DNA of 64,000 bases, taken from Candidatus Borkfalkia excrementigallinarum (GTDB lineage Bacteria > Bacillota > Clostridia > Christensenellales > Borkfalkiaceae). Every line of letters starts with the position of its first letter. Positions within the stretch are counted from its first letter, which is position 1. The position numbers and the translations under genes were made by a program. Below the pieces are notes generated by a model, which had not been told where the DNA came from, did no database searches, and saw only the letters and a program-made list of their open reading frames with translations. The stretch is from the NCBI GenBank assembly GCA_019115885.1, contig DXCQ01000020.1, positions 5,475 to 69,474 on the forward strand, written 5' to 3'. Shown one piece after another: positions 1,995-64,000 of this stretch.

Positions 1995-2192
1995 ATGCCT
2001 AAATTTGGCAAATCGGGCTGATTTAAGCATTATATGTGGGTGAATCCTCACTAAAAAGAGCATATTTCTTCTTGCAAATAATTTAAACATCGGAATATGT
2101 ATGTTTATAAATTTAAAACTCAAGAATATGTGAGTTATATTGACAATGTAATATAGTTTTGATAGAATAGTAAAAAGAGAAGGAGCTATTTT

Positions 2193-2777
2193 ATGGGATT
2201 AGAAAAATTTGATGATGCGATTGCAGAATATATAGAAACAAAGCGAAAACATACAATAAAAGCATTGAAAATGGCTCAGCTTTCTGATAGTGAAATTGAT
2301 CAATATTGTGCTGAGATAGAAAAGGAAATCCTTGGTTTTGTTAAATGTAATGAGCCATACGCGCAATTGCTTATGGACTTAGAACACATTCATTCTAAAA
2401 AATACAATTTGTATTCTCTTACAGAGATTGCAAAGAAGAAAAATCATGACAACCCTAGTTATGTTATCCAAAGTTGGCTCAGAGATATAAATACTTTGCA
2501 GTTTTTATATTTGTGGGAGAAAGATAACAATCAATATTTTATCGAAGAAGCCGCAAAAGAATTGATAGAGAAAACAAAGCAACCTTCATTCACAATGACC
2601 GCAAAATTATGGATAAAGAATACCCGGGCAATAGGGATCAGATCAAAACAAGGACATGGAGGAGGTACACTTGTTAGTCAAGAAATAGCGATTGACTTTA
2701 TAACATGGGTGTTTCCGGAAAAGAGATATGAATTGTCAAAACTAATAGTCAACAAAATTATGCAGTTGAAGGATTAG
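2193..2777 (+). CDS. KilA-N (APSES-like) domain DNA-binding protein
   Basis: SLTEIAK...VIQSWLR...TLQFLYLWE...TAKLWI...IRSKQGHGGGT...IAIDFITW pattern; SD GGAG; AT-rich. Confidence 0.8.
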   Translation: MGLEKFDDAIAEYIETKRKHTIKALKMAQLSDSEIDQYCAEIEKEILGFVKCNEPYAQLLMDLEHIHSKKYNLYSLTEIAKKKNHDNPSYVIQSWLRDINTLQFLYLWEKDNNQYFIEEAAKELIEKTKQPSFTMTAKLWIKNTRAIGIRSKQGHGGGTLVSQEIAIDFITWVFPEKRYELSKLIVNKIMQLKD

Positions 2778-2825
2778 ATTTTAACAAAAAAGGGGGAGTG
2801 TATATACGTCATATAGAAGTGATTA

Positions 2826-3123
2826 GATGATTTTACGAAGACAACTAAAGACCTTGTAGCTCAAAGGGGCATATAGATGCTCTTTTAAAAATTGTGGAGT
2901 TGATACTATGGGGTTTCAGTAGGGAGATGCATCAAAATCTAATAACAAGGGAATTGCTTGTCACATTTGTGCAGCTTTGTTTGGTGGGCCAAGATATGAT
3001 CCAAAGAGAGTGGTACCTTAAAATTGTTTTTGGATGTGCCTCACGCATGCAGAACTTATTGATCATGATTTAAATAAATATTCGGTAGAATTATTACGTG
3101 AATAGAAAAAAGAAACTGAAGTA
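2826..3123 (+). pseudogene. Degenerate HNH endonuclease-like gene
   Basis: Conceptual translation with one frameshift and three stops: DDFTKTTKDLVAQR/AYRCSFKNC...G*...KGIACHICAALFGGPRYDP...*NCFWMCLTHAELID...KYSVELLRE*K. Confidence 0.7.
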
Positions 3124-3161
3124 AGAACAGAATCTAATTTAATAAATTATAATTTTTCTAA

Positions 3162-4649
3162 AAGTCAATTAATGAAACATGGGGACAGGAATCTTCAACG
3201 ACAATCAAGCAGGTCAAAATTGTTCTGAAATCAGAAGAAGATACGACGTTCAGGGGGACGTTATCGTTAGATTATGCCTGCACGGAATTCGACGACCGTT
3301 TGCCTACCAATCCGAGTATATATATTGCCGCGGTAAAAAATGTCGTTGAATATTCGCAAGATGCGGAATTTTTAGATCAGGTTTTGCCTTATGCGCGCCG
3401 TGCGATGAATTATCTGCTATATCAGTTACAAGGAGAAGAAGGTTTGATTAGCACGGAAAATTTGGTAGGGCACTATAATAAGGGATTGCATACCAAAGGT
3501 TCGGGCATGGCATCAGGCTATTGGAATGTTCTTGCTATGCCGACAGTAAATATTTATGCCAATATTTATTTTTATGATGCTCTTGTCGCCATGAGTTATT
3601 TGGAAAAGATGGCTGAATTTTATAATGTGGAAAATTTTAGTGAGGTCGTGACAACAGAAGATATAAAAAATGATAAGGTTTACACCTATTCGCAAACGGG
3701 TGAAAGCTTGGATGCGCTTGCGGAGAAGTGTAAGACGAAGATGCAAACGGAGTTTTGGAATGAAGAAACGGGGCGCTTTCATGCCGGTTGCTATGATACT
3801 TCGGCAGGTGGAGTGCAGGACCACGGTTACCTTTTTTTCAATGAACAATTGATTGCCAGCGGTATTGCAACGCAGGAACAGACCGAATCGGTAATGAAAT
3901 GGATAAACGGTGAAAGAGAAATTGCAAGCGACGAAAGTCGTGGAGAGGATATTTATTATTTCGAATTTGCACCGCGATTTAATACGGATGATGTCGAAAC
4001 GGATTTATATTGGGGATACAGTACAACATGGAACGGAAATGTGCAAAATGGCGGGGCAGCGTTGCATCAATCTTATTACGATTTGCTCGCTCAAGCGGCC
4101 GTTAATAAAGATACTTCTTTTACTCGTTTAAAGAATATCCAACAGTGGTATGAAAAAGTGCAGACGGCGGGTGGCGAAGGCCTTGATTTTTATCGGGAGT
4201 ATTATAAGGATATTCCGGATATGCCTTTGCAGGGAAACGATACGCAAGGTATTTTAGGTTTGGATTTCGAATGGTTGGAAGCCGCACTTTTATTTGCGGC
4301 CGTACCGGATGCGTATTTCGGACTTTCCGCCGACTATAATAATACGTTATGTGTTGAACCGTCGCTTCCTACTTCATTAGATTTTTGGAAAATAGAAAAT
4401 CTTACATTTAACGGTTACTATTATGATTTATCGATCGGGCATTATTTTGTTGAGATTAGCGACATTTTAGAGTATAAAGACGGAAGCGGTTCAGAAAATG
4501 CCGAAATTCGAATAGTTTTCGACAAACCGAGTTTTGATTTCAAACTTTATTTGGATGATAAAGAAACATCGGATTATGTAATCAGTGGAGATCAACTGAT
4601 TATTACGATCCCGTTTGAAGATATAAAAGTTGAAATTAAAAAAGTTTAA
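3162..4649 (+). pseudogene. 5'-truncated glycoside hydrolase-like (six-hairpin glycosidase-like) protein
   Basis: Frame is open from 3162 (after TAA at 3159) with no ATG or SD before the TTG at 3300. Helical acidic/aromatic core (FWNEETGRF, DHGYLFFNE) and a beta-rich C-terminus. Confidence 0.55.
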
Positions 4650-4656
4650 CAGTTTG

Positions 4657-4712
4657 AAGCACCTGTTGAAGTCAGGATCCCAAAGGTTCAAATTCAACAG
4701 GTGCTTTGTTTA
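4657..4712 (+). terminator. Hairpin terminator
   Basis: AAGCACCTGTTGAA / TTCAACAGGTGCTT perfect 14-bp arms followed by a T-rich tail. Confidence 0.7.
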
Positions 4713-21432: not shown

Positions 21433-21463
21433 TTAGCATAATATTTTGCAGAAAGGTGGGACT

Positions 21464-24457
21464 ATGGCTGACGAACTAACAATTCAAAATTCAGACGTGG
21501 TGAGTTTAGTTAAACGATTGAAAGACAGATCAATCGGATTTTATGATGTGCCTGATGAATACAAAAATCATCCTTTAATTGTAAAAGTAGAAAGAGAATT
21601 AAAGGTTAGAAAGTCGATACTGAAAGGGTATGATATAATACGAAATAATTTTTTTGTTGAAGAAGAAATTAGCGATTCCCGTTCTTTAATGAATAATATA
21701 CAAACGACTTGCTTTAACGATTTTTCTGCATATTATAATTTTTTACAGGGAGATATTTATAAAAATAGTTGTTATTATGGATATTGCTTTTCAGAGGAGG
21801 AAAGAAAAAAATATTCATTATCCTTGAAAAGATTAAATTTTGATGCTTTTATTAGAAATTCGATTGACGATTTTTCCCTTGATTTTTCTATAGAGGAACA
21901 AAAACAATATCAAGAGATAGAATTAAGGAAGAACGGCATTTTAGAAATGCTTGATAAAATCAATGCTTGTACGACTTATACAGAACTTAAAGAACAGGTG
22001 CAAAAAGCTTCAACTAATCCTATTGCTCAGGAATTTTTTCTGTCTTACTATATCGTTCATAATAAGGAAAAAGCATTTAATATTGCCATGGAATATATCA
22101 ATAATACGCACTCGTTTCTCCATGCAGAAAAAATGTGTTTGATATATGAGCCGCAAAAGGTTCTTGAAGCTTATAAATGTACTGGTTATACTCGGCAAAC
22201 AGCAAAAAAATATGAAAAACGTCTCAGACTGTTTGTGAACGCCTTAGAAAATGATACTTTAAAATCAAAATCAGCGGCATATTTTGATGAAAAAACTCAT
22301 TTATTTGTCTTCAGTACTGCTGTGGAATATGAGTTAGATTCAAAGTATAATCATGAAGTAAAGATACAAAGATATTTTAAGACATTTGAAGAATTAGCGG
22401 TATTCCTGGGGAACGATTTATCAGATTGTGATTTATCGCACGCTATTCTGCCAAATTTGGATATATCAAAATATAAAATTTCCGATAGAACAAAATTACC
22501 TGTTCAATTCCAAAATGATCTCCTTTACACATTAATAAAAGCATATGACAAGAAAGAAGATAAATTTATTGTTGAACAGAATTGGACGGATAAAGAAGGG
22601 TTCTCCTTTAAATATTATCACCATTCTTTTAAGTATTTCTTTGATTTTGTACATTTTCTAAAAGGCGATTTGCGTAATGCTGATTTACTGTTTTGCGAAG
22701 GTTTGGAAAATGTTCAAAATTTTTCAGAAATAAATTTACAAAATGCAAATCTTAGAAGTGAGATTTCAGATAACCTGGGTATAAAACATAAGATCTCGCC
22801 TGTTCCCTCTATTGAAATTTCCCCTTTGATTCAACAAAACGAAGAAGAATCGCAAAATGTTCTACTATTTGAACGAGAATCTTACAGTTTTGAAGAAAAT
22901 TTTGAATGCCAAAAAATATATTATATTTCTGACCTGCATTTCGTGCATAGGTTAAATAATGCACATTGCAAAAGCGAGACGGATATTATTTCTGAGATAC
23001 AAAAAGTGATCGATATGCTTTTAAGCAGGTTGAATACATTTAGTATTTTAAACATACATAAATTTGGAAAGAGAATTTTGTTGATTGGAGGAGACACCTC
23101 GTCGGATTTTGCGATTTTTCAGCAGTTCGTCAAGATGTTAAGAAAATCGCTTGATAATAAACAACTTGATTTAAATGTCGTTTTCACGCTTGGGAATCAT
23201 GAATTGTGGGCCTTTCCGCAATGTACACTCGGAGAAATTGTCGCAAAGTATCAGAAAGTGCTCAGTGAAAATGGCATGTTCCTTTTACAAAATAATATAA
23301 TTTATAAGTATAATTGGAATGATATCGGTGAAATAAGCACCGATGCACTGAAATCTATGTCCGCGCAAGAACTTCATCTTCGTCTGAACGAAGCAAGAAT
23401 AATCCTTTTTGGAGGAATAGCGTTTTCCGGATATAATGAAGAGTTTAATGCAAATTTGCTTATTTATAGAGATACGATAAACAGGCAACAGGAAATCGAG
23501 GAAACAAAAAATTTTGAAGCACTATATCGTAAAGTTTGCAATGATTTATCCGATAAAAGAGTAATTGTGTTTACGCATATGCCGCAAAGAGATTGGTGTT
23601 CTGACATAAAACAGCAAAAAGGTTTTGTTTATTTAAACGGTCATACACATAGAAATTATTTTTATGATGATGGAGACTATAGAATATATGCAGACAATCA
23701 AATAGGCTATAAATACAGAAATACGTACCTTAAATATTTTTATTTAGATGATGATTACGATATTTTTACCGATTACAAAGACGGAATATACGAAATAAGC
23801 AGAGAACAATATGTCAAATTTTATCGCGGGAAGAACATTGCAATAACATTTGACAGAGAATTTTATAAACTCTTTATGCTAAAGAAGAATGGATATTATA
23901 TGTTTGTTCTTCAAACTCAAAATGGAAAGTTAAGGATTTTAAACGGCGGAACAATAAAATGCTTAGAACGAAAAGATATAGATTATTATTTTGATAGAAT
24001 GGACGAGATTGTTTCTTATATTAAAAATCCTTTAGATGAATTCAGTACGTATCAAACACAAATTTCTAAAGCGATTAAAGCTTTAGGCGGAAGCGGAACA
24101 ATTCACGGATCAATCGTAGATATAGACTTCTTCAACCATTTATATATAAATCCAATAGATTTTACAATAACACCTTACTATGCGGTTGATATTGTAAGAA
24201 AAATAGTTTTTTCGGATACGCAAGAACTGTTAAAAAGTAATTGTCCTGTCCTTTATAAAAATTATTTAAAACAAACGGAAAATAAATCGCCTGTAATAAG
24301 CTGTTTACTGAAAAAAGGAAGAACAGATTCTAATATGCAACTTTATTTGGATACTGATATATATAAAGCATCGAGAGAAATTAAAAAAATGCAAAAATTA
24401 AAATCAAATATTTTAAGCATATGGATTGAGCCTACTATTAAAAAGCTCAATGAATAA
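21464..24457 (+). CDS. 997-aa calcineurin-like metallophosphoesterase with a repeated N-terminal region
   Basis: All five MPE motifs are present: ISDLH, GGD, GNHE, FTH, GHTH. SD AAAGGTGG, ATG 21464. Markedly AT-rich relative to its flanks. Confidence 0.85.
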   Translation: MADELTIQNSDVVSLVKRLKDRSIGFYDVPDEYKNHPLIVKVERELKVRKSILKGYDIIRNNFFVEEEISDSRSLMNNIQTTCFNDFSAYYNFLQGDIYKNSCYYGYCFSEEERKKYSLSLKRLNFDAFIRNSIDDFSLDFSIEEQKQYQEIELRKNGILEMLDKINACTTYTELKEQVQKASTNPIAQEFFLSYYIVHNKEKAFNIAMEYINNTHSFLHAEKMCLIYEPQKVLEAYKCTGYTRQTAKKYEKRLRLFVNALENDTLKSKSAAYFDEKTHLFVFSTAVEYELDSKYNHEVKIQRYFKTFEELAVFLGNDLSDCDLSHAILPNLDISKYKISDRTKLPVQFQNDLLYTLIKAYDKKEDKFIVEQNWTDKEGFSFKYYHHSFKYFFDFVHFLKGDLRNADLLFCEGLENVQNFSEINLQNANLRSEISDNLGIKHKISPVPSIEISPLIQQNEEESQNVLLFERESYSFEENFECQKIYYISDLHFVHRLNNAHCKSETDIISEIQKVIDMLLSRLNTFSILNIHKFGKRILLIGGDTSSDFAIFQQFVKMLRKSLDNKQLDLNVVFTLGNHELWAFPQCTLGEIVAKYQKVLSENGMFLLQNNIIYKYNWNDIGEISTDALKSMSAQELHLRLNEARIILFGGIAFSGYNEEFNANLLIYRDTINRQQEIEETKNFEALYRKVCNDLSDKRVIVFTHMPQRDWCSDIKQQKGFVYLNGHTHRNYFYDDGDYRIYADNQIGYKYRNTYLKYFYLDDDYDIFTDYKDGIYEISREQYVKFYRGKNIAITFDREFYKLFMLKKNGYYMFVLQTQNGKLRILNGGTIKCLERKDIDYYFDRMDEIVSYIKNPLDEFSTYQTQISKAIKALGGSGTIHGSIVDIDFFNHLYINPIDFTITPYYAVDIVRKIVFSDTQELLKSNCPVLYKNYLKQTENKSPVISCLLKKGRTDSNMQLYLDTDIYKASREIKKMQKLKSNILSIWIEPTIKKLNE

Positions 24458-24469
24458 ACAATGTTTTGA

Positions 24470-24507
24470 AAAAAGAACCTAAATCGAATTCGATTTAGGT
24501 TCTTTTT
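24470..24507. terminator. 38-bp perfect palindrome, bidirectional terminator
   Basis: AAAAAGAACCTAAATCGAA|TTCGATTTAGGTTCTTTTT between a convergent CDS and the tRNA locus. Confidence 0.75.
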
Positions 24508-24508
24508 A

Positions 24509-24527
24509 GCGCAGAGAGCGGGATTTG
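24509..24527 (-). repeat. 19-bp copy of the tRNA-Ser(GGA) 3' end (att-like)
   Basis: GCGCAGAGAGCGGGATTTG is identical to 24812-24830. Confidence 0.85.
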
Positions 24528-24809
24528 TAAGGAGCGGCGGATGCCGCGACGGAACAGCAATCGTTGCGTGGAAAGCCGATCGCGTCACGTTATTTCAATA
24601 ATATAGAGCTATAGAGCAGGTGTGTATGGTATAGCGGCATACGGCCGAAACCCCGTAGGGGTCCCCTCGGCTGAGCGTCGTGGGCGGTGCCCGCTCGCGT
24701 GAACCGACGCGCGTACAGGCAAGGCGGACGATACAAACCTCGTATCGCGCGTGGTTCAACCGTTTCCGCCGCACCAAAAAAGGACTGCCGGTTGGCAGTC
24801 CTTTTTTGG

Positions 24810-24900
24810 TGGCGCAGAGAGCGGGATTTGAACCCGCGGTACCCTTATGAAGTACACACGATTTCCAATCGTGCTCCTTAAGCCGCTCAGACATCTCTGC
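24810..24900 (-). tRNA. tRNA-Ser(GGA)
   Basis: Acceptor GCAGAGA/TCTCTGC-G-CCA; anticodon arm CACGA-TTGGAAA-TCGTG; long variable arm; GGTTCAAATCC. Confidence 0.97.
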
Positions 24901-24932
24901 AAAAAACCCAACTTAAAAAGTTGGGTCAAAAT

Positions 24933-25007
24933 TGGTAGCCCCACGGGGACTCGAACCCCGGTTTTCGCCGTGAGAGGGCGACGTCTTAACCGCTTGACCA
25001 TGAGGCC
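24933..25007 (-). tRNA. tRNA-Glu(CTC)
   Basis: GGCCTCATGGTCAAGCGG...TCGCC-CTCTCAC-GGCGA...GGTTCGAGTCCCCGTGGGGCTACCA. Confidence 0.97.
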
Positions 25008-30601: not shown

Positions 30602-31672
30602 TTATAACAAGATGCGAATTAAGAATTCACGTTTTGCCCATTTCTTATATGTATAGTATTCTGAAGATGTTAGATTAGTGGTGAGGAATTCAGTTATAAG
30701 AAAACCCCGATCGGAATTATCGGTTCCGTCGGGGTTGTTATCATTATGCGGGGGAGTGGTATGCGGTTCTCCATGATATTTTAAGAATATCTCTATTTTA
30801 TCCATGTAAACGATTATTTTCTCGACTAAAAGTTCTACAAGGTTTCGAGGTGTTTTTTGAATGGCGTACTTTAAGTATTTCTTAATTTCATCCGTCGTCG
30901 GGACTGAGCGCTCTTTGTTTTTTTCTATCAATAATTTTTCAGTCAATGCCTTCTTTTGCGTCTCAAGTTCATCCAAACGGGTTTTCGTAGTATCACTGAA
31001 AATTCCGTTTTCGATTGCTTTTAGCAAATTGGATAATGACTTGTTGGTTTGAGCTAAAGCCTTTTCAAGTGTTTTTAAGGTTTGCGCTTCGGCTGTATCT
31101 TGCTGTAATTTTATTAAAAGACGTTCAGTCAGAAAGTTTAGATTTTTCTCAGTTGTGACTTGGTCAACAAGTGCGGAAACTACGAGGTTTTCCAAAATGT
31201 CTTTTCGGAATGTTTTATCTTTACAGCCCTTTACTCGTCTGGCGGAAAAACAACGATAGTATCTGTATTGTTTCTTACCCCGTGATTTTCCTCCGGCTGA
31301 ACGCATAGGATTACCGCATTCGCAGAATAATTTTCCTTTTAAGATGTATTCAACGCCGGGGACATGTTTGCCGTGACGGTTCGCTTCAAGTCGCTTTTGT
31401 ACTTGTTGAAATATTTCTTCGGGGATGATGCGAGGAAAAATGTTGTCGTATAATATTCCGTTAACGGTATATCTTCCCGCATACCGCTCCAAATGTAACA
31501 TATAGTACATGGATTCAGGCGAAAATGGAACGCCTTTTTTATTTACGATGCCGTCGGCTTTTAATTCTTCTGCAAGGGTGAGCAATCTTTTTCCGTTTGC
31601 GTATTCGGTAAAGATTCTTTGTGCAATTTTCGCCTCGGTTTCATTGATAACGACTTTTCTGTCAATGACATC
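30602..31672 (-). mobile_element. C-terminal fragment of a large serine recombinase (recombinase + zinc ribbon + coiled coil)
   Basis: VINETEAKIAQRIFTEY, ERYAG, PRII, GKLFCECG, YYRC...C. The N-terminal catalytic domain is absent, and the AT-rich segment ends abruptly at 31672. Confidence 0.85.
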
Positions 31673-32557
31673 ATGACGATCGCTCTCGGCTGTGCGGCGG
31701 CGGTGCTCGCCGCCGCGGTGCTCATCCTCGCGCTGAAAGTATGCGCGCTGAAAAGTTCCCTGCGGGAACTCGCCGTACAGGCGGAGGAAAAATACCGCGA
31801 AAGCTCCAACGCGCCGCTCTCCCCGCAGTCTGCGGATAAGGGCGTGCGGCGGCTGGCGGGGGAACTCACGGCGCAGCTCGACGAAGTTATCGCCGCGCGG
31901 CGGCAGTATGCGGAGGGCAACGGCGAATTGCTGCGCGCCGTTACCAACGTTTCGCACGACCTGCGTACGCCGCTCACGTCCATTGCGGGGTATTTGGGTT
32001 TGCTCCGTTCGAGCGGGTTAAACGACAAACAAATCGAATTTGTCGATATTATCGGCGGGCGCGTCGCGGCGATGAAAAAGCTGACGGAGGAGCTGCTCGT
32101 CTATTCGGTCGCCGCGTCGGGCGAGGAGGAAATGCCCGCCGGGCGCGTCTGCCTCAACGATTGTCTGGAAGATTCTCTCACGCAGTTCTATGTATCCTTT
32201 GCGGAGCGCGGCATCGAACCGAAGATCGATATCTGCGCCGCGCGCGTGGAGCGCTCGTACAACAAGGACGCGCTCTCCCGCATATTCGGCAATATCCTCT
32301 CCAATGCCGTGCGGTATTCGGACGGCGATCTGTGCGTGCGTTTGGAGGAAACGGGGCGCATCGAATTTGAAAATTCCGCCTCGCGGTTAGACGGGGTGAG
32401 CGCGGGCAAGCTGTTCGACCGCTTTTTTACCGTGGAGAATGCGCGCGGTTCCGCGGGGCTGGGGCTCTCCATCGCCAAACTCCTCACCGAAAAGTCGGGC
32501 GGAAAGATCGCCGCGTCGTGGCGGGCGGGGCGGCTGAAAATCGTTTTGTGCCTGTAA
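31673..32557 (+). CDS. Sensor histidine kinase, RBS apparently lost
   Basis: N-terminal TM, NVSHDLRTPL H-box, NILSNAVRY, LFDRFF, GLGLSIAK; ATG abuts the recombinase fragment. Confidence 0.85.
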   Translation: MTIALGCAAAVLAAAVLILALKVCALKSSLRELAVQAEEKYRESSNAPLSPQSADKGVRRLAGELTAQLDEVIAARRQYAEGNGELLRAVTNVSHDLRTPLTSIAGYLGLLRSSGLNDKQIEFVDIIGGRVAAMKKLTEELLVYSVAASGEEEMPAGRVCLNDCLEDSLTQFYVSFAERGIEPKIDICAARVERSYNKDALSRIFGNILSNAVRYSDGDLCVRLEETGRIEFENSASRLDGVSAGKLFDRFFTVENARGSAGLGLSIAKLLTEKSGGKIAASWRAGRLKIVLCL

Positions 32558-40119: not shown

Positions 40120-40207
40120 TGGCGGAAGGTGAGGGATTCGAACCCCCGGACCCTTGCAGGTCTTCAGTTTTCAAGACTGACGCCATCGACCACTCTGCCA
40201 ACCTTCC
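40120..40207 (-). tRNA. tRNA-Ser(TGA)
   Basis: GGAAGGT/ACCTTCC-G-CCA; TCAGT-CTTGAAA-ACTGA; long variable arm; GGTTCGAATCC. Confidence 0.97.
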
Positions 40208-40255
40208 TTATGAAAAATCTGTCGAGGCTCAATTATTGTGCAAATACTATTTAAG

Positions 40256-40284
40256 AGTATATCAAATCGGGCATTTTTTGTCAA
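40256..40284 (-). promoter_or_regulatory. tRNA-Ser(TGA) promoter
   Basis: TTGACA-17-TATACT on the minus strand. Confidence 0.75.
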
Positions 40285-40341
40285 CTGTTTCCAGAAAAGT
40301 GACTATATAAGTTCATAAATCGCAGTATAACTTGTTTATCC

Positions 40342-40370
40342 TTGACTTTTTTTTCAATTTGACGTATACT
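40342..40370 (+). promoter_or_regulatory. SigA promoter about 180 nt upstream of tyrA
   Basis: TTGACT-17-TATACT. Confidence 0.65.
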
Positions 40371-40492
40371 AATACATATATAAAGCTGAGGGAGTGGAAA
40401 TTTTTTGTCGGCTCAAATGTTATCTCGGAGCAGGTTTTGCGGGCGACAAGGATATACCGTTTCCTTTTGCTTTTTATAACTTGCAATTCGTT

Positions 40493-40527
40493 ACGGTTTT
40501 GCCGGCGGCAGAACCGTTTTATTTTTT
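40493..40527 (+). terminator. Terminator inside the tyrA leader
   Basis: ACGGTTTTGCC / GGCAGAACCGT stem followed by TTTATTTTTT. Confidence 0.65.
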
Positions 40528-40550
40528 ATAGAACGGAGGAGAAGTTCCGT

Positions 40551-41375
40551 ATGAAAATTATGGTTGCGGGGCTCGGTTTGATCGGTGGCTCGATGGCAAA
40601 ATCTTTGAACCGTGCGGGTTATGCGGTGGACGGATTGGACAGGCCGTCCGTGCAGAAACGCGCGAAAGAGCTGGGCGTGATAGCGGATATAGCAGAGCAG
40701 ACTTCCGCATACGACGTCGTGTTCGTGGCGTTGCCCCCGGATGCGGCAATGGCTTTTATGGAAAACAACGCATATAAGGAAGGGGCGATCGTTGCGGATA
40801 TCTGCGGCGTTAAAGAATCGATCGAGCGTGCGATACTCGCTTCGCCGCGTTCGTTTCGCTATGTGGGGTGTCATCCGATGGCGGGGAAAGAAGTATCGGG
40901 CTTGGAAAATTCGGCGGAAACGCTGTTTGACGGGGCGAGTATGATCATCACCGAAAACGAACAGACGGATGCGGGCGCCGTGCGCACGCTCGAACAACTG
41001 TTTCGCGAGATGGGGTTTGAATGCATCAAACATTGCAGCGCCGCCTATCACGATACGAAGATCGCTTATACGTCGCAGCTTGCGCATATTGTGAGCAATG
41101 CTTATGTCAAAAGTCCCGCCGCCGACGGCTTTCCCGGATTTACGGGCGGCAGCTTTCAGGACATGACGCGCATTGCGGGGGTGGACGAGGAAATTTGGAC
41201 ACGCTTGTATATGCTGAATATCGACAAGGTGGAAGCGGAACTTTCGCTTCTCATTGAAAATCTCAGAAAATATTTGGCCGCGTTGCGTTCCGGCGACGAA
41301 ACTTTGCTGAAAGAACTTTTAAAGGAAGGGCGTTTGCGCAAAGAACAGTTGGATGCGGAACGTAAAATTCTTTGA
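40551..41375 (+). CDS. tyrA: Prephenate dehydrogenase
   Basis: GLGLIGGS, DICGVK, HPMAGKE, HD..IAYTSQLAH, FQDMTRIA; SD GGAGG. Confidence 0.92.
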   Translation: MKIMVAGLGLIGGSMAKSLNRAGYAVDGLDRPSVQKRAKELGVIADIAEQTSAYDVVFVALPPDAAMAFMENNAYKEGAIVADICGVKESIERAILASPRSFRYVGCHPMAGKEVSGLENSAETLFDGASMIITENEQTDAGAVRTLEQLFREMGFECIKHCSAAYHDTKIAYTSQLAHIVSNAYVKSPAADGFPGFTGGSFQDMTRIAGVDEEIWTRLYMLNIDKVEAELSLLIENLRKYLAALRSGDETLLKELLKEGRLRKEQLDAERKIL

Positions 41376-41483
41376 TTTTTGCAATTCCGTACGGCGTTGT
41401 TTTACAACTGATTGCGAATATGGTATAATAAACGAGAGTAAATGCGCACTGTGTGCGGTTTACCGCCGAGTCGGATAAAAAAT

Positions 41484-41876
41484 ATGAAAAAAACAAAGAT
41501 ATATCTTTCCGTTCATGGCGGCGGCGAAGAGCAAAAGTTTATAACCGAGGGGGAAGTATCGGAGCGGAGCGGCCGGACGGAATATCGTTTTCGTGCGGAC
41601 GGAGCGCAATTTACGATAACATTTTCGGAAAATGTAGTCATCGAGCGGAAGGGCAATATCGCGTATCGCATCGAATTGAACGAGACCGCGCTTACGCAGA
41701 CGATGATTTGTACAGAATTCGGGTTCCTGCCTGCCGAGGTCAAAACGATCCGGTCGGAAAAATCTTTGGAGCACGGGTTGGAATATAAGGGGGAATATGA
41801 AATGCGATTTGAAGAATTTTCTCAGCGGCACACGGTAAAGTTCCGGGCGTGCGACACAGGGAGGGCAGACGAATGA
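41484..41876 (+). CDS. Beta-rich hypothetical protein (DUF1934-like)
   Basis: Alternating beta-strand pattern, VIERKG, TEFG. Confidence 0.55.
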   Translation: MKKTKIYLSVHGGGEEQKFITEGEVSERSGRTEYRFRADGAQFTITFSENVVIERKGNIAYRIELNETALTQTMICTEFGFLPAEVKTIRSEKSLEHGLEYKGEYEMRFEEFSQRHTVKFRACDTGRADE

Positions 41877-42517
41877 AAATCAAATATTTCGGGCATTCCT
41901 GTTTTTTGATGGAAACGCGGCGTGGAACGTGTATTTTGACCGACCCGTACAACGGGATCGGCTATCCTTTGCCGCAGGTGCGGGCGGATTGCGTTTGCTG
42001 TACGCATCAGCATTTCGATCATAACTATGTCGGCGGCGTGGATGGTGTGCGTCAAACGATTTCCGATGCGGGAGAATATGTCTTTGAGGATGTGAAAATA
42101 ACGGGCATTCCCGCATTTCACGACGAAGTGAATGGCGCTAAACGCGGCCGCAATATCGTATACAAATTCGAGGCGGACGGGGTGTGCGTCTGTCATATGG
42201 GCGATATCGGGCAGTCGCCGTCTGAGCAGCTGCTCGGAAAGATCGGCCGTCCGGACATTTTGCTCATTCCCGTGGGCGGCACCTATACGGTCGACGCTGC
42301 GGGGGCTTTGGAGTATATCGGCAAAATCCGTCCGCGTGTTGTTGTGCCTATGCATTATAAAACGGAGGATTGTACGATCGACATTGCTCCCGCCGACGGT
42401 TTTATACGGCTGTGCGGTGAACAGAATTGCGAGAAACTCGACTGTATCGACTGTACGGATTTAAGCGTGTACGAAAGAAAAATAATTTTACTGCGGAGGC
42501 GGAACGATGGAAGATAA
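41873..42517 (+). CDS. Metallo-beta-lactamase-fold hydrolase
   Basis: YFGHSCF, TDPY, THQHFDHN, CHMGD, PVGG, PMHY. Confidence 0.9.
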   Translation: MKIKYFGHSCFLMETRRGTCILTDPYNGIGYPLPQVRADCVCCTHQHFDHNYVGGVDGVRQTISDAGEYVFEDVKITGIPAFHDEVNGAKRGRNIVYKFEADGVCVCHMGDIGQSPSEQLLGKIGRPDILLIPVGGTYTVDAAGALEYIGKIRPRVVVPMHYKTEDCTIDIAPADGFIRLCGEQNCEKLDCIDCTDLSVYERKIILLRRRNDGR

Positions 42518-43967
42518 CGAACTTCTGCGCGTATATAAAAAGGTATACGACTATTTAAACAACTGCAATATTTACGAGGTTCGTAATTTAGCCCGTGCAT
42601 TCGGTGTGAATGCACCCACAACGGATAAAAAGAAAGATTTGATACTTCGTCTTATCCGCATCGGCGCGGGGATTTCCGATCCCGGCCCGCGCAGCAACAA
42701 GGGCGCGCGGGTAAAAGCGAGCGACGCATCGGAAGAACGGGTTGCTGCGGTGCGCTCGTTGATCGTCGATTGCAACGAAGCGCTAACGTACGGCGGCTCG
42801 GAACAGCCGCCCGCGGAATACCGATTCCGCGATGCCGAATCGGGTGCGGAAGAATTCGGTTACGGCGATGAGTGCGCAACCGGGATATTGGAAGTCGGAA
42901 AGCAGGGGCACGGGTATTTGCGCGGATATTCTTTTATGGCGGAAGAAGGCGATGCGATTGTTTCGGACAAGCTGATCCATCAATATCGTCTGCGCGAGGG
43001 CGACGTGATCAGCGCCTATATCGTCCAAAACGGTTCGGCCGCAGAAGCGGTGCAGGTGGCGGCGGTCAACGGCGGTGCACCCGTGTTCATCGAGCGGAAA
43101 AAATTTGACGATCTTCCCGCCGTGTATCCGAGCGAACGCTATGCGCTTGGCAGAAAAGATTGCGCCTTTCTCCGGGCGGCCGATATCGTTTGCCCGCTGT
43201 GTAAGGGGCAGCGCGGGCTTGTTTTTGCGCCGAGCAATGCGGGACGCACGATTTTTTTTCGCGAGGCGGCACGGTCGATTTCGCTCGCTTATCCGAAGTC
43301 AAAATTGATTTTTGTTTCGCTCGACCAGCGCCCGGAAGAACTTACGGAAACGGCGGGTCTGTTTCCCGACGCGGCTGTGGTCGCTGCGTCGTTTGAAGAT
43401 TCTCCCGTCCGCGCGATGCAGGCGGCGCGGCTCGCTTTGGAATATGCGAAGCGTATCGCGGAGAGCGGGGGAGATGCGGTGTTGCTTCTCGATTCGCTCA
43501 CTGCGCTCGTACGGGTAGTTGCTTACGGCACCGTTCCGTCCGGCAGGGAAACGGCGGGCGGTATCGATTTGGCTGCTCTCGGAGCGGCGAAAAAATATTT
43601 CGCCGCAGCGCGTAAACTCAAAGGTGCGGGCTCGCTCACTATGTTGGCGGCGGCGCTCACGGGGCGCGGCGTCGCTTCGGATGCGGATGTGTGCGAAGAA
43701 CTCGGCGGCGCGGCGAATATGTTTGTCCGTTTTTCGCGCGAAATAGCCGCGCGCGGCGTTATTCCCGCAATTGATTTTTCATGTTCCTACACAAAGTGGT
43801 GCGAAAATTTCCAATCGGAACGGGAGCGCCGCTGTGCGGAAGCATTGAAGGAGATGGCCCGCGGCAGATTCGGCGCCGAGCACATAGGCGAACTTTTTTC
43901 CAAAACGGAAACAAACGAAGAATTTATTGAGCGTGAGGAGCTTTGGGCTTCCGCGCGGAGGGGATGA
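42507..43967 (+). CDS. rho: Divergent transcription termination factor Rho homologue with a degenerate ATPase site
   Basis: Rho_N helix, OB-fold GILE..QGHGYLR, KGQRGLVFAP, RPEE, LLDSLT, AARK...GSLT, PAID; catalytic positions substituted (see findings). Confidence 0.85.
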   Translation: MEDNELLRVYKKVYDYLNNCNIYEVRNLARAFGVNAPTTDKKKDLILRLIRIGAGISDPGPRSNKGARVKASDASEERVAAVRSLIVDCNEALTYGGSEQPPAEYRFRDAESGAEEFGYGDECATGILEVGKQGHGYLRGYSFMAEEGDAIVSDKLIHQYRLREGDVISAYIVQNGSAAEAVQVAAVNGGAPVFIERKKFDDLPAVYPSERYALGRKDCAFLRAADIVCPLCKGQRGLVFAPSNAGRTIFFREAARSISLAYPKSKLIFVSLDQRPEELTETAGLFPDAAVVAASFEDSPVRAMQAARLALEYAKRIAESGGDAVLLLDSLTALVRVVAYGTVPSGRETAGGIDLAALGAAKKYFAAARKLKGAGSLTMLAAALTGRGVASDADVCEELGGAANMFVRFSREIAARGVIPAIDFSCSYTKWCENFQSERERRCAEALKEMARGRFGAEHIGELFSKTETNEEFIEREELWASARRG

Positions 43968-43972
43968 CGATT

Positions 43973-44917
43973 ATGAAATATTATATCGGAATGGATTTCG
44001 GCGGTATGAGCGCCAAGGCCGGGCTGTTTTCCGCGGACGGAAAGCTCGTCTGCAAAGACAGCGTAAAGACATCGAAGGAAGACGGCTATTCGCTGACCGT
44101 CGATAAACTCGCGGAATTGGCGCAGGTGCTTATCCGACGTTCGGGCAAGCGCGCCGAATGTTTGGGTATCGGCTCGCCGGGCGTGATCGACGGCTCTGCG
44201 GGCGTTGTCGTGCGGTGGGGCAATTTCGATTGGAAAGACGCGCCCCTCGCTGCAGACCTCGCAAAGCGTACGGGCCTTCCCGTCAAGCTCGCCAACGACG
44301 CGAATGTGGCGGCTTTGGGCGAAGCAAAGTTCGGCGCGGGGAAAAAGTACGGCGACAGCGTGCTTTTAACGCTGGGTACGGGCATCGGCAGCGGCATTAT
44401 TTTGGGCGGAAAAATATTTGAAGGGTTCTGCGGCGGCGGGGCCGAGGCGGGGCATATGGTCATCGAAGCGGGCGGCATTCCCTGTTCCTGCGGCAGGCGC
44501 GGCTGTTTTGAGCAGTACGCCTCCGCGACTGCGCTCATCCGCGATACCAAGCGCGCCATGTTCGAGTATAAAGACAGCCTGCTTTGGTCTTTGGCGGGGG
44601 AACCCGAAAACGTATCGGGAAAAACCGCCTTTGAAGCCGCGCGAGGCGGGGATGCGGCGGCGCAGAAAGTTGTTAAAAACTACATAATGTACCTTGGGGA
44701 GGGAATACTCAATCTCGTGAACATTTTCCGCCCTGAGGCGATCATGATCGGCGGAGGCATCTCCAACGAGGGTGAATATTTATTGCAGCCTCTGCGCAAG
44801 TATGTGAGCGAACGGCTGTACGTCGATTGCGAGCGGATCCCGCTCGTGATCGTGCGCGCCACGCTCGGCAGCGATGCGGGCATGGTCGGCGCACTCGCGC
44901 TCGCCGCGGACAAATAG
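43973..44917 (+). CDS. ROK-family sugar kinase (glucokinase)
   Basis: DFGG, NDANVAALGE, TLGTGIGSG, EAGH, CSCGRRGCFE. Confidence 0.93.
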   Translation: MKYYIGMDFGGMSAKAGLFSADGKLVCKDSVKTSKEDGYSLTVDKLAELAQVLIRRSGKRAECLGIGSPGVIDGSAGVVVRWGNFDWKDAPLAADLAKRTGLPVKLANDANVAALGEAKFGAGKKYGDSVLLTLGTGIGSGIILGGKIFEGFCGGGAEAGHMVIEAGGIPCSCGRRGCFEQYASATALIRDTKRAMFEYKDSLLWSLAGEPENVSGKTAFEAARGGDAAAQKVVKNYIMYLGEGILNLVNIFRPEAIMIGGGISNEGEYLLQPLRKYVSERLYVDCERIPLVIVRATLGSDAGMVGALALAADK

Positions 44918-44948
44918 CGCTCGGCGTATCCGCCGCAAAGGAGAACTT

Positions 44949-45731
44949 TTGAAAAATATATTTGCAAAAAAGCGCCCGAAGCTCGGCCTTGCGCTCGGCA
45001 GCGGCGGCGCAAAGGGAATGGCGCATCTCGGCGCTCTGCGCGCGTTTTGGGAGGCCGGCCTGCGGTTTGACGTTTACAGCGGCACTTCGGCCGGTTCCAT
45101 CGTAGGCGCGCTCTGCGCGCGCGGCTATACGCCCGACGACATCGGGGAACTGCTCGCCTCGGCAGATTTCAAGAGCGTCGTTCTCTCCGTTTTGGCGTCC
45201 GGAAGCACCTTGCCCGTACTGCGCCTGCTCGACGGCGCGTTGGGCGAATACGAATTTTCCGAGCTTTCCAAGCCGTTTGCGGCGGTCGCGACCGACGCTT
45301 CCACCGGCGAACGGGTAATTCTGCGCGAGGGAAACGTGGCGCAGGCTGTTCTCGCTTCGTCCGCCGTACCGCCGCTGTTTCGGGGCGTTTCCGTAGGCGG
45401 CCGCACGCTTATAGACGGCGCTTTTTCCGACGCGATCCCCGCCGATGTGGCGAAAGATCTGGGCGCCGATTTCGTGATCGCCGTTGCGCTCTCTCCCGCG
45501 CAAAACTATGCCGAAACGCGGTTTACGACCTCCGCGGGCGAGGAGATGGCGGTGCGGCAGAAAGGCTTTCTCTCTGCCGATATCCTGCTCGAACCCGACC
45601 TTGCGGAGTTTTCGGCGGCGGATATAGCGGGCGGCGCGCGTATGTACGATATCGGCTATGAATGTGCGGCGGAGCGCCTGCCTTCGGTTTTGCAAGCGCT
45701 GCAAAGTCGGGGTTATCTCGTCCGCGGCTGA
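44949..45731 (+). CDS. Patatin-like phospholipase
   Basis: GSGGAKG, GTSAG, DGA; TTG start after SD AAGGAG. Confidence 0.88.
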   Translation: MKNIFAKKRPKLGLALGSGGAKGMAHLGALRAFWEAGLRFDVYSGTSAGSIVGALCARGYTPDDIGELLASADFKSVVLSVLASGSTLPVLRLLDGALGEYEFSELSKPFAAVATDASTGERVILREGNVAQAVLASSAVPPLFRGVSVGGRTLIDGAFSDAIPADVAKDLGADFVIAVALSPAQNYAETRFTTSAGEEMAVRQKGFLSADILLEPDLAEFSAADIAGGARMYDIGYECAAERLPSVLQALQSRGYLVRG

Positions 45732-45788
45732 AAGGGAAAGTGCGGCGTCTTTGTGTTTCGCCGCCGATCGCACGGTGAGGGATTACAA

Positions 45789-46856
45789 ATGAAAAGAGAC
45801 ACCGAACGCGCGGTGCGGGCCGCACTCGGCGGGAGGAAGAAAAATAAATTGCTGTTGCGGCGGTATCTGCCCGCGCTTGTATTGGCGGCGGCTTTTTTCG
45901 CGCTGGTATGTTTCGACCTGTTCGTCTTTCCCCTTGAATACCTTTGGGCATTCGCCTATTCGCCCAACCTGCCGCCGCGCGGCGAAGGGGAGCTCCGCGT
46001 TCATTTTATCGACGTAGGGCAGGGCGATTGCACCGTGCTCGAATTTCCCGACGGCAAGACGATGATCGTCGACGGCGGCGACGGGAGGGCAGAAACGCAT
46101 ATGCGCGTGCTCGGCTATTGCCGCGGATTGGGTATCGATACGTTCGATTGGGCGCTGCTCACCCATGCCGATTCCGATCATGCGGGCGGGCTGGACGATG
46201 CTCTGAATTATTTCGGTGCGGATACGGTGTTTCTTCCTGCCGCGGGAACGGAAGGGGAGGGGTATCGCGAAGTGCGTTTGGCGGCGGAGCGTGCGGGCGC
46301 GCGGCTACGAACGGCGCAGATGTTTGAATCGGGCATATCTTCGCAGAGGGAGCGTTTCTATTATTGGATGCTCCTTTCGCCCTTTTCGCAGTCGGTCGTC
46401 CCTCCCGCGCAAGGGGAAGAAACGAACGATTCTTCCGCCGTTTTGTATCTGGAGTATGCGGGGCGAACGTTCCTTTTGACGGGCGATGCGCCTTCCGCCG
46501 TGGAAGACAGGCTGGCAGAAGCGTATACGGAAACGGCGGGCGCGGTGTTCGAGCGCCCGGTGCAGGCGGCTTGGGGAAAGATCACCCTTTCGCCCGCGCT
46601 GGAAAAGTTGGATTTCCTCAAAGCGGGGCATCACGGGAGCGCCTCTTCCACGGGCGAAATGCTTGCCTCGCTCTGCGCGCCGAACGCGCTGTTTATCAGC
46701 TGCGGCGCGGGCAATACATACGGGCATCCGAATCTTTCCTGCATGAAAAACGTGCTCGCGGCATCGCCCGATGCGGAGATATACCGCACCGATGAATTGG
46801 GCAACATCATGCTCACCGTGCGCGACGGAGGGGAGTATTCCGTCCGTTTCGGTTAA
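45789..46856 (+). CDS. ComEC/Rec2-like beta-lactamase-fold nuclease with an N-terminal membrane anchor
   Basis: HFIDVGQGD, LTHADSDHAGGL, LLTGD, KAGHHGS, YGHP, YRTD. Confidence 0.88.
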   Translation: MKRDTERAVRAALGGRKKNKLLLRRYLPALVLAAAFFALVCFDLFVFPLEYLWAFAYSPNLPPRGEGELRVHFIDVGQGDCTVLEFPDGKTMIVDGGDGRAETHMRVLGYCRGLGIDTFDWALLTHADSDHAGGLDDALNYFGADTVFLPAAGTEGEGYREVRLAAERAGARLRTAQMFESGISSQRERFYYWMLLSPFSQSVVPPAQGEETNDSSAVLYLEYAGRTFLLTGDAPSAVEDRLAEAYTETAGAVFERPVQAAWGKITLSPALEKLDFLKAGHHGSASSTGEMLASLCAPNALFISCGAGNTYGHPNLSCMKNVLAASPDAEIYRTDELGNIMLTVRDGGEYSVRFG

Positions 46857-62473: not shown

Positions 62474-63553
62474 TCAGCCGAAGTATCCCTTTGCCGCGAG
62501 CAGTTCGGCCATGAGTACCGCGCCGCCCGCCGCGCCGCGCAGGGTATTGTGCGAGAGGCAAACGAACTTGTAATCGAATACGATATCCTCGCGCAGGCGT
62601 CCCACTGAAACGGCCATGCCGTTTTCCAGCATGCGGTCGAGTTTTGCCTGCGGGCGGTTATCCTCTTCGAAGTAATGTAAAAACTGTTTGGGCGCAGAGG
62701 GCAGGCCGAGTTTTTGCGGCTCGCCCGAAAATTCCGCCCACGCCTGCAAAATTTCTTCTTTCGAGGGCTTTTTGTCGAAGGAAACGAACACCGCCGCCGT
62801 ATGCCCGTCGGATACGGGTACGCGCAGGCATTGCGCCGTGATCTTCGGCTCGTTCGCCGTAACGATCTCGCCGCCCTCGATATTTCCCCAAATTTTGAGC
62901 GGTTCGCGTTCAGATTTTTCCTCCTCGCCGCCGATAAAGGGGATGATGTTGTCCAAAATTTCGGGCATGCGGTCGAATGTCTTGCCCGCGCCGCTGATGG
63001 CCTGATAGGTGGAAACCGCCACTTTGGAAATGCCGTACTTGCGCAGCGGGTGCAGGGCGGGCACATAGCTTTGCAGCGAGCAGTTGCTCTTTACCGCGAT
63101 GAAACCGCGTTTGGTGCCCAACCGCTTGCGCTGCGCGGCGATGATCTCCGCGTGCTGCGGGTTGATTTCGGGGATGATCATGGGCACGTCGGGCGTAAAG
63201 CGGTGCGCCGAATTGTTGGAAATGACGGGCACCTCCGCCTTGGCGTACTTCTCTTCGAGGGCCTTGATCTCTTCCTTTTTCATATTGACGGCGCAGAACA
63301 CGAAATCGACCGTGCCGGCGATCGTATCGATGTCCTTTTCCGCGTCCAGAACGACCATATCCGCAAATTTTTCGGGAATGGGGGAAGTCATCGCCCAGCG
63401 TCCCGCCACGGCGTCGCGATAGGTTTTTCCCGCCGAAGAAGGGGAGGCTGCGAGCGCCTTAACGCGGAACCAAGGATGGTTTTCGAGCAGGAGGCAGAAC
63501 CGCTGCCCGACCATGCCCGTAGCGCCGATGACGGCGACGTTGTACTCTTTCAT
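62474..63553 (-). CDS. asd: Aspartate-semialdehyde dehydrogenase
   Basis: GATGMVGQ, SNNSA.R, SNCS, YQAISGAG, EEEK, RVPV.DGH, HNTLRGAAG. Confidence 0.97.
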   Translation of the reverse strand: MKEYNVAVIGATGMVGQRFCLLLENHPWFRVKALAASPSSAGKTYRDAVAGRWAMTSPIPEKFADMVVLDAEKDIDTIAGTVDFVFCAVNMKKEEIKALEEKYAKAEVPVISNNSAHRFTPDVPMIIPEINPQHAEIIAAQRKRLGTKRGFIAVKSNCSLQSYVPALHPLRKYGISKVAVSTYQAISGAGKTFDRMPEILDNIIPFIGGEEEKSEREPLKIWGNIEGGEIVTANEPKITAQCLRVPVSDGHTAAVFVSFDKKPSKEEILQAWAEFSGEPQKLGLPSAPKQFLHYFEEDNRPQAKLDRMLENGMAVSVGRLREDIVFDYKFVCLSHNTLRGAAGGAVLMAELLAAKGYFG

Positions 63554-63698
63554 ATCAGATTCTCCTATATATGTTAAAAAATTTATCCTAATGATAACAA
63601 AAATACGGCGCCGAACGGGCACCGTAACCGAGAAAGCCGAAATCGCCGCACAAGCGGTTTGGTTCCGCCGCATTGCGGCGGGCGGATCGTTTCGGCTG

Positions 63699-63864
63699 CA
63701 ATAGTTCTCCACGTTGCGGTGACAGTCGCGCGGGTATTCTCCCTCGCGCCCGGCGGCAGCGCTGCGGCGGTGCGCTGTGCCTCGGCGGGGATGCCCTTTT
63801 TTTCCGCCGGAGATGCCGCTCCCCGATGCGGCGGAAATACTCTTGCTCGCCCGCTCCTCTATTC
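63699..63864 (-). ncRNA. Lysine riboswitch upstream of asd-dapA-dapB
   Basis: Minus strand: AGAGGAGC...GAGTA...AAAGG...CGCCGA...GGG...AATA...GACTGTC...GTGGAG..CTAT; GC hairpins downstream. Confidence 0.9.
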
Positions 63865-64000
63865 AGCATATGAATTTTATCACAGAAAAGCACAAATGTC
63901 AAAGAATTTTTTTATTCGGACGGGATATTTTAATTGAAATATTTTCCTCTTTGTAGTAAAATAGAGTATAGCTATCCAAAGCGGCTCGCATGCCGTATGC

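Follow-up and report, generated by a model that had tools for sequence, protein, structure and literature searches.

The pseudo-Rho gene and the domains of its product

The DNA analyzed here, referred to below as the window, is a 64-kb stretch (64,000 nucleotides) of contig DXCQ01000020.1 of Candidatus Borkfalkia excrementigallinarum. A gene located in its distal half encodes a full-length homologue of transcription termination factor Rho in which most of the residues serving ATP hydrolysis, as well as a number of those contacting RNA, are replaced; its product is termed pseudo-Rho. The gene, the segments of the protein and the altered functional sites were placed in the window as follows (residue numbers with substitutions are those of E. 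coli Rho).

42507..43967, plus strand: pseudo-Rho open reading frame (ORF), 486 aa, ATG start, uninterrupted
42507..42668, plus strand: N-terminal helix bundle, residues 1-54, Rho_N homologue (hhalign from residue 13; AlphaFold2)
42669..42731, plus strand: basic linker with RSNKGARVKA, residues 55-75, the most conserved segment of the clade described below
42732..42866, plus strand: insertion region, residues 76-120 (AlphaFold2; clade alignment)
42867..43076, plus strand: OB-fold RNA-binding domain, residues 121-190 (PF07497), primary-site residues degraded
43173..43796, plus strand: RecA-type ATPase domain, residues 223-430, fold retained (PF00006; Foldseek)
43227..43250, plus strand: degenerate Walker A motif APSNAGRT (K181N, K184R; T185 kept; alignment)
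43326..43328, plus strand: Q274 codon at the catalytic Glu position (E211Q; alignment)
43491..43505, plus strand: Walker B region, D329 = D265 kept, A333 = R269A, arginine switch lost
43533..43568, plus strand: Q-loop equivalent VPSGRETAGGID, present in the window protein
43662..43721, plus strand: R-loop remnant and the next motif, GRGVAS (K326A) and EELGGAANM (K336G; alignment)
43794..43796, plus strand: K430 codon at the arginine finger position (R366K; alignment)

A BLASTP alignment of 383 residues with E. coli Rho showed 34% identity (the reference sequence was taken from NC_000913 and aligned by MAFFT and BLASTP). Pfam models recognized Rho_RNA_bind (PF07497) at residues 125-191 and ATP-synt_ab (PF00006) at residues 223-428, and the best NCBIfam matches were the two Rho equivalog models NF006886 and TIGR00767, with scores under both curated cutoffs (251.6 vs 315 and 232.4 vs 509.45, respectively). 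The best PDB sequence matches were the Rho proteins of T. maritima (3l0o, E-value = 5.9e-56), T. thermophilus and E. coli (E-values from 1e-52 to 6e-56). Models of FliI/type III secretion system (T3SS) and F1/V1 ATPases matched weakly and in the ATPase domain only (E-value = 7e-12 or worse); an identity as one of these ATPases was rejected, since the matches were far under the cutoffs and all weaker than those to the Rho models. The AlphaFold2 monomer model built on the clade alignment had a mean predicted local distance difference test (pLDDT) score of 86, and its top Foldseek matches were all Rho chains (root-mean-square deviation 2.2-2.9 A, ~350-370 columns). The protein has the Rho architecture of an N-terminal bundle, an OB-fold and a RecA-type ATPase.

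In a preliminary description of this DNA, Rho_N, the OB-fold and Walker B had been regarded as kept. For the OB-fold (PF07497) and Walker B (D265, retained as D329) this was borne out, whereas for Rho_N it held only in part: an N-terminal helix bundle was found by hhalign and AlphaFold2, but the Pfam Rho_N model gave no match at the N-terminus. The bundle was counted as present despite this miss because the profile alignment of the clade with canonical Clostridial Rho extended over residues 13-475 (hhalign, E-value = 2e-86) and the AlphaFold2 model showed the domain, with predicted helices at residues 3-9, 11-18, 22-31 and 42-53. In the insertion region, AlphaFold2 placed a confident helix (residues 76-94, with the invariant C89) followed by a low-confidence loop (residues 95-113).

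In canonical Rho, the gamma-phosphate is contacted by K181 and Mg is coordinated by T185; the catalytic glutamate, E211, is held in position by R269, the "arginine switch", while R212 and R366 serve as the arginine valve and the arginine finger, respectively (PMC11718236; bioRxiv 10.1101/069559). In addition to the changes listed above (the K184R codon occupying 43245-43247), the window protein carried K352R, R353G, G364Y and F355I, F355 being the adenine-stacking residue. In the primary RNA site, F62H, F64Y and Y80I were found, the E108-R109-Y110 motif was replaced by a gap, S and A, and the motifs GFGFLR and DIYVS were changed to GHGYLR and DAIVS. Meanwhile, T185, D210, R212 (as R275, codon 43329-43331), D265 and R272 were kept, as were the RPEE, GQRGL and GSLT motifs. 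Every substitution named in the preliminary description was reproduced by MAFFT and BLASTP against E. coli Rho, and its codon positions 43245 (K184R) and 43326 (E211Q) were exact; proper alignment, a check that it had named, did not restore the catalytic residues. One label had to be corrected: the name arginine valve, which had been given to R269, belongs to the retained R212, whereas R269 is the arginine switch. Given these replacements, the ATPase of the window protein is predicted to be dead.

The pseudo-Rho clade, its conservation and expression

An exhaustive phmmer search of 1.84 billion representative proteins gave 4918 matches, and 26 functional positions were tabulated for the best 150 of them together with E. 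coli Rho (MAFFT). Thirteen representatives (P0001, P0003-P0013 and P0022; 439-493 aa, 264-744 bits) were 41-68% identical and form the pseudo-Rho clade; the remaining representatives, separate from it, were 33-38% identical to the window protein. About 127 of the 137 non-clade sequences in the table were diverse canonical Rho proteins of 420-1100 aa, which were canonical at K181, G183, K184, T185, D210, E211, R212, D265, R272, K336, R353 and R366 and had only R or K at R269 and K326. As judged from the alignment against this background, the substitution pattern of the window protein is beyond chance or noise. According to a 2024 survey of 2730 genomes, the ATPase domain is highly conserved among functional Rho factors, and second Rho copies keep the catalytic residues (PMC11347177). 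No catalytically dead full-length Rho is described in that survey, whose RefSeq sample excluded uncultured gut Clostridia, and full-text literature searches for inactive, pseudo- or degenerate Rho returned nothing relevant. The pseudo-Rho clade is previously undescribed. The "Rho-like" cyanobacterial protein (PMC13613805) consists of the N-terminal domain only and was set aside as a different thing.

The clade members came from metagenomes of the chicken and human gut. Scanning metagenomes with a profile of the clade yielded 23 more loci from these two sources, and nine further full-length lineages among them gave the same picture, so that the clade set comprised 13 representatives and nine metagenome loci, with the Q-loop tabulated in 21 lineages. 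E211, R269, K181, K326, K336 or R353 was found in none of the clade members. The catalytic Glu position was occupied by Q, L, Y, W, C, G or F; at position 184, seven of the 13 representatives retained K, two had R (P0001 and the window protein) and four had V or A, and in these four the P-loops were shrunk to GADAA, GGEALA or GxGVT. The Q-loop was deleted in approximately 13 of the 21 lineages, and the R-loop region was often shortened. Since the P-loop is destroyed in several relatives, nucleotide binding without hydrolysis could not be the conserved function of the clade, and an "ATP-binding scaffold" was rejected as that function. No new invariant acidic residue was found near the active site in the clade alignment, the ancestral RPEE glutamates aside. 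The invariant clade-specific motifs (ARAFG, RS.KGARVKA, C89, F.D and YGYGD) all lay in the N-terminal third, with G66, A67, V69 and K70 invariant in the linker. Profile-profile alignment showed that the clade N-terminus is homologous to the bundle of canonical Clostridial Rho and to its "P..S.RG.P.K" linker.

The neighbour-joining (NJ) tree recovered the clade as monophyletic, with root-to-tip distances of 1.3-1.6 vs 0.7-0.8 in canonical Rho (approximately double), and placed the partly degenerate representatives P0015 and P0020 between the canonical sequences and the clade. Approximately 10 of the 137 non-clade representatives carried inactivating-looking changes (P0015, P0020, P0031, P0047, P0105, P0112, P0115, P0120, P0145 and P0146), for example, K181G, K184G, D210G and E211G in P0115, E211V, R212N and R366K in P0120, and K184A with R366N in P0020; judging from these sequences, degenerate Rho homologues may have arisen repeatedly.

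The ratio of non-synonymous to synonymous substitution rates (dN/dS) of pseudo-Rho was estimated relative to the orthologue of L002, a chicken metagenome-assembled genome ("uncultured Clostridia bacterium") that was the sole source of a true orthologue in the genome-contig scan. For this pair (68% identical), dN/dS was ~0.17, with synonymous sites near saturation; the values were higher for the neighbouring MBL (0.20), ROK (0.26), ComEC-like (0.19) and DUF1934 (0.44) genes and lower for aroC (0.04) and the prephenate dehydrogenase gene (PDH, 0.08). Close pairs in other sub-lineages of the clade gave dN/dS of 0.05-0.27. The strongest constraint was found at residues 55-75, i.e., in the linker (dN/dS 0.02, with a proportion of synonymous differences, pS, of 0.56). 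The 90% identity cluster of the window protein itself contained too few differences for a population dN/dS (three synonymous and two non-synonymous). In the 90% identity clusters taken together, all 91 members of at least 430 aa kept the residue pattern of their lineage, with no reversions, and an identical copy of the window protein was present on 10 other metagenome contigs. Overall pairwise identity was alike in the clade and in canonical Clostridial Rho (0.39 vs 0.42), whereas its distribution along the protein was not: the mean identity was 0.51 in the clade vs 0.24 in canonical Clostridial Rho for the N-terminal bundle, 0.61 vs 0.23 for the linker, and 0.40 vs 0.63 for the ATPase domain. 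Relative to canonical Clostridial Rho, constraint has shifted away from the ATPase domain and into the N-terminal bundle together with the basic RSNKGARVKA linker.

Up to 89% of the pseudo-Rho k-mers were recovered in chicken-gut metatranscriptome runs, and contigs over the gene were present in four runs. One contig of 5209 nt corresponded to 41534-46742 of the window, from DUF1934 through the ComEC-like gene, and another began at 41574. Pseudo-Rho is thus expressed on the basis of metatranscriptome contigs, for which DNA carry-over is possible. The runs examined were metagenome-sized (0.66-2.0 million contigs each), and none resembled an isolate. In run X24, however, the depth was 9-49 over PDH and 87-144 over the operon, and this unevenness argues against pure DNA carry-over. 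The view of the gene as retained and not as a decaying pseudogene was upheld by the dN/dS of ~0.17, by the pattern kept in 91 of 91 cluster members and by the metatranscriptome contigs spanning the gene.

Gene neighbourhood, origin and possible role of pseudo-Rho

The immediate surroundings of the gene are occupied by the following features.

41401..41429, plus strand: promoter-like site TTTACA-17-TATAAT with TG, 5' of DUF1934 (consensus match only)
41873..42517, plus strand: metallo-beta-lactamase (MBL)-fold hydrolase, PF13483, TM0207-like, directly 5' of pseudo-Rho
42495..42499, plus strand: Shine-Dalgarno sequence GGAGG, 7 nt 5' of the pseudo-Rho ATG, within the 3' end of the MBL gene (sequence reading)
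43943..44917, plus strand: ROK-family glucokinase-like gene, with a 25-nt overlap across the pseudo-Rho stop

The TAA stop of the MBL gene (42515-42517) lies inside pseudo-Rho, so that the two genes overlap by 11 nt, which agrees with the intact 486-codon ORF overlapping the upstream MBL gene as originally described; the position of GGAGG inside the 3' end of the MBL gene implies translational coupling of pseudo-Rho to it. The MBL protein (214 aa) matched PDB 1vjn (E-value = 3e-50), and its HxHxDH motif was intact as HQHFDH. The promoter-like site is a candidate start of a DUF1934-MBL-pseudoRho-ROK-... transcript.

The order PDH-DUF1934-MBL(PF13483)-pseudo-Rho-ROK-(patatin)-ComEC-like MBL-aroC was found in every clade locus of sufficient length, and this constancy indicates that pseudo-Rho is a vertically inherited core gene. 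The same slot also holds canonical Rho: in P0039 (locus L042), all catalytic residues were intact and the gene order was MBL-Rho-ROK, with a 20-nt overlap with the MBL gene, and in P0023 (locus L043) a canonical Rho lay directly 3' of the same MBL family. Partly degenerate Rho likewise followed the MBL gene in P0015 (E211G and R269A, otherwise largely intact) and P0020 (K184A, R366N). Because pseudo-Rho occupies the slot of canonical Clostridial rho (MBL-rho-ROK), it most likely represents the native rho orthologue of the lineage and not an added paralogue. The MBL(PF13483)-rho pair, often overlapping or abutting and often with ROK 3' of it, was observed in L042, L043, L013, L017 and the window (41873-44917), i.e., a group of Clostridia keeps it with canonical and with dead Rho alike. 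As canonical Rho has the same MBL neighbour, this adjacency is an ancestral trait that is not confined to the dead form and does not account for it.

The closest canonical relatives of the clade in the tree were the Clostridial-type Rho proteins with an N-terminal insertion, P0039, P0023 and P0014, which were homologous to pseudo-Rho over the full length and had the P..S.[KR]G..K linker in common with it; P0039 and P0023 shared its MBL neighbourhood as well. In these proteins, all catalytic and RNA-site residues are kept, and the conservation is the reverse of that in the pseudo-Rho clade. Compared with canonical Rho in general (E. coli; T. maritima 3l0o), pseudo-Rho is alike in three-part architecture and fold but lacks K181, K184, E211, R269, K326, K336, R353, R366, Y80, E108, R109 and Y110, and with these residues missing it is not expected to hydrolyze ATP or to translocate on RNA; we infer that it cannot act as an ATP-driven translocase. 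A parallel to E211Q is offered by the alpha subunit of F1-ATPase, a Rho-related RecA-fold ring subunit with Gln at the catalytic Glu position, which binds nucleotide without hydrolysis and plays a structural role. The alpha subunit, however, has an intact P-loop and forms a hetero-hexamer with the catalytic beta subunit, whereas for pseudo-Rho no catalytic partner is evident and several P-loops of the clade are lost. The second Rho of "Group B" (NF041509, paralog_Rho2) also diverges from the E. coli pattern, but its N-terminal domain is usually absent and its catalytic residues are kept (PMC11347177), whereas in pseudo-Rho the N-terminal domain is the best conserved and the catalytic residues are lost; the score of pseudo-Rho against NF041509 was 237.5, below the cutoff of 628. 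Rho of Mycobacterium tuberculosis is a "weak" enzyme with poor NTPase and helicase activities, for which motor-free termination was once proposed (PMC4499133; PMC8828861) but which was shown to depend on ATP-driven motor activity (PMC4499133). It keeps all the catalytic residues that pseudo-Rho lacks.

On this evidence, pseudo-Rho is probably the rho of the lineage itself (the MBL-rho-ROK slot), turned into an ATPase-dead and translocation-dead pseudoenzyme and kept by purifying selection. Hydrolysis would have been lost with the catalytic Glu, the Walker A Lys, the arginine switch, the arginine finger and K181, the grip on RNA at the secondary binding site in the ring with K326 and, in relatives, the whole Q-loop, and the primary pyrimidine-binding cleft with Y80 and the E108-R109-Y110 motif. 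Rho-dependent termination would have become dispensable in the lineage, as in many Bacillota; approximately 30% of sampled Bacillota are without functional Rho (PMC11347177), so loss of Rho function is tolerated in the phylum. The protein would then have survived through a motor-independent function, in which the N-terminal bundle and linker, carried by a scaffold that is Rho-like and probably oligomeric, would bind either RNA or the transcription complex. The earlier proposal of a retained, ATPase-dead Rho with a new role stands as regards retention and, as far as residues can tell, the dead ATPase, whereas partnership with the MBL hydrolase as that role does not, given that canonical P0039/L042 and P0023/L043 have the same MBL neighbour. 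A more specific proposal can be put forward only tentatively, namely, that this lineage of gut Clostridia is without a motor-competent Rho and that its sole rho orthologue acts as an ATP-independent factor, the N-terminal bundle and RSNKGARVKA binding RNA or the transcription complex. If this is true, the Rho scaffold would have an activity that needs no motor, and this activity would be related to the "stand-by" state bound to RNA polymerase, which is under debate.

Several observations weigh against pseudo-Rho as the lineage's own, dead rho. The loss of ATPase activity is deduced from residues; the window protein shows conservative exchanges (K to R, E to Q, R to K) and still possesses the Q-loop, R212, D265 and T185, so nucleotide binding may persist in it. 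Some canonical Clostridial Rho genes (P0014 and P0065) lie in a different context, ychF-argS-...-rho, although in the NJ tree P0014 grouped with P0023 of the MBL context and not with P0065, which fits a single rearranged gene better than two ancient paralogues. When the 64-kb window and ~356 kb of related loci were screened by tblastn with E. coli Rho as the query, no further Rho-like gene turned up, but this coverage is too little to settle the matter. The other neighbourhood of canonical rho (ychF, argS, HI0933-like, RadA and Obg genes) was also looked for in the 64-kb window; none of its genes is present there, which carries no weight either way. Sense-strand purine bias has been used as a proxy for active Rho pressure (PMC13323073); its value here was ~52%, which is below the 54% reported for B. 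subtilis with its active Rho but above the level of no bias, and therefore does not indicate that Rho pressure is absent. Finally, three disrupted copies were found, comprising split ORFs in L020 (2.1x coverage) and L033, both on low-coverage contigs, and a frameshifted Logan contig (P0002).

Dead subunits can poison ring ATPases. It is conceivable, although unlikely, that pseudo-Rho is a paralogue beside a canonical Rho encoded elsewhere, which it would modulate through mixed hexamers, in a dominant-negative manner, or by competition for RNA or NusG. The ychF-argS context of canonical Clostridial Rho is in keeping with such a paralogue, and second rho copies were reported in 116 of 2730 genomes (PMC11347177). 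However, pseudo-Rho sits exactly in the canonical MBL-rho-ROK slot, the tree interleaves canonical sequences of both contexts (P0014 with P0023) and thereby misfits two ancient paralogues, the screen described above gave no second Rho-like gene, and the loss of the Q-loop and P-loop in many members fits poorly with a working mixed ring. The dominant-negative modulator of a canonical Rho suggested in the preliminary description, which needs a second rho, is thus less likely in view of the slot shared with canonical rho.

That the gene is a functionless relic drifting toward loss, with stop codons not yet acquired, is very improbable, even though Rho is dispensable and lost in many Bacillota, the ATPase domain has evolved more rapidly than that of canonical Rho, and a few contigs carry split or frameshifted copies. 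A relic is at odds with dN/dS of 0.17 overall and 0.02 in the linker at near-saturated synonymous sites, with an ORF that is full-length down to ~40% identity and in all 91 cluster members of at least 430 aa, with conservation exceeding that of four neighbours, with transcription, and with translational coupling kept on both sides of pseudo-Rho, while the disrupted copies came from low-coverage or single contigs (2.1x for L020). Least plausible, and to be considered extremely unlikely, is a still-working ATP-dependent terminator that relies on compensating residues or an altered mechanism. The retention of R212, D265, T185, RPEE, the Q-loop and the Rho fold and the conservative nature of the substitutions would accord with it, and relocated catalytic residues are found in some pseudoenzymes (PMC10211241). 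However, K184, E211 and R366 were invariant in ~127 of the 137 other sequences and R269 was only R or K, while in the clade the residues at the catalytic Glu position share no conserved chemistry, no new invariant acidic residue lies near the site, and the RNA-contacting K326 and the primary-site residues are lost.

Rho is regarded as an RNA translocase that is driven by ATP and strictly conserved, and a clade of dead Rho proteins would surprise specialists in the field. It would represent a natural set of separation-of-function alleles for motor-free roles of the scaffold and the N-terminal domain, which bears on the "stand-by" vs "catch-up" debate (reviewed in PMC12360218). Surveys of termination or purine bias that score Rho as present by domain matches would misclassify these gut Clostridia. 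In addition, one conserved slot holds an evolutionary series of Rho forms, canonical in P0039, partly degenerate in P0015 and P0020, and fully degenerate in the clade, which is suited to studying how a motor of an essential type turns into a pseudoenzyme.

Other features of the window

Upstream of the operon, the leader of PDH (coding start at ~40554) contained a promoter-like site (40342-40370, plus strand) and a strong terminator-like hairpin (40493-40517, plus strand; 11-bp stem and T-run), the latter suggesting an attenuator; an Rfam scan of this leader found neither a T-box nor any other known element. The region between tRNA-Ser(TGA) and PDH varies in structure at the strain level. A metatranscriptome contig (run X25) omitted 567 nt of it (window 40207-40775), and strain L010 (99.6% identical) had an extra cassette of MazE-like and ABC transporter genes between DUF1848 and PDH (L010 5720-7444).

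The transfer-messenger RNA (tmRNA) gene was located at 1564-1942 (plus strand; tag ADNNANYNANAQLAYAA), directly followed by a low-GC block (2000-4700; GC content 0.33-0.40 vs ~0.55 elsewhere) encoding a KilA-N domain protein (2193-2777) and a 449-aa protein without a Pfam match (3300-4649). This block has the appearance of a genomic island, or of what is left of a phage, integrated at ssrA. A further region of low GC content (0.30), at 21446-25007, contained a 1003-aa ORF with a calcineurin-like phosphoesterase as its only domain; it adjoins tRNA-Ser(GGA) and tRNA-Glu(CTC) (24810-25007, minus strand) and is probably foreign DNA inserted beside tRNA genes. An ORF of the large serine recombinase type (30602-31957, minus strand; Recombinase and Zn_ribbon_recom domains), whose GC content of 0.44 is under that of its surroundings, may mark a mobile element. 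A lysine riboswitch (63694-63869, minus strand; 71 bits) was found 5' of a minus-strand operon starting with the aspartate-semialdehyde dehydrogenase gene (62474-63712).

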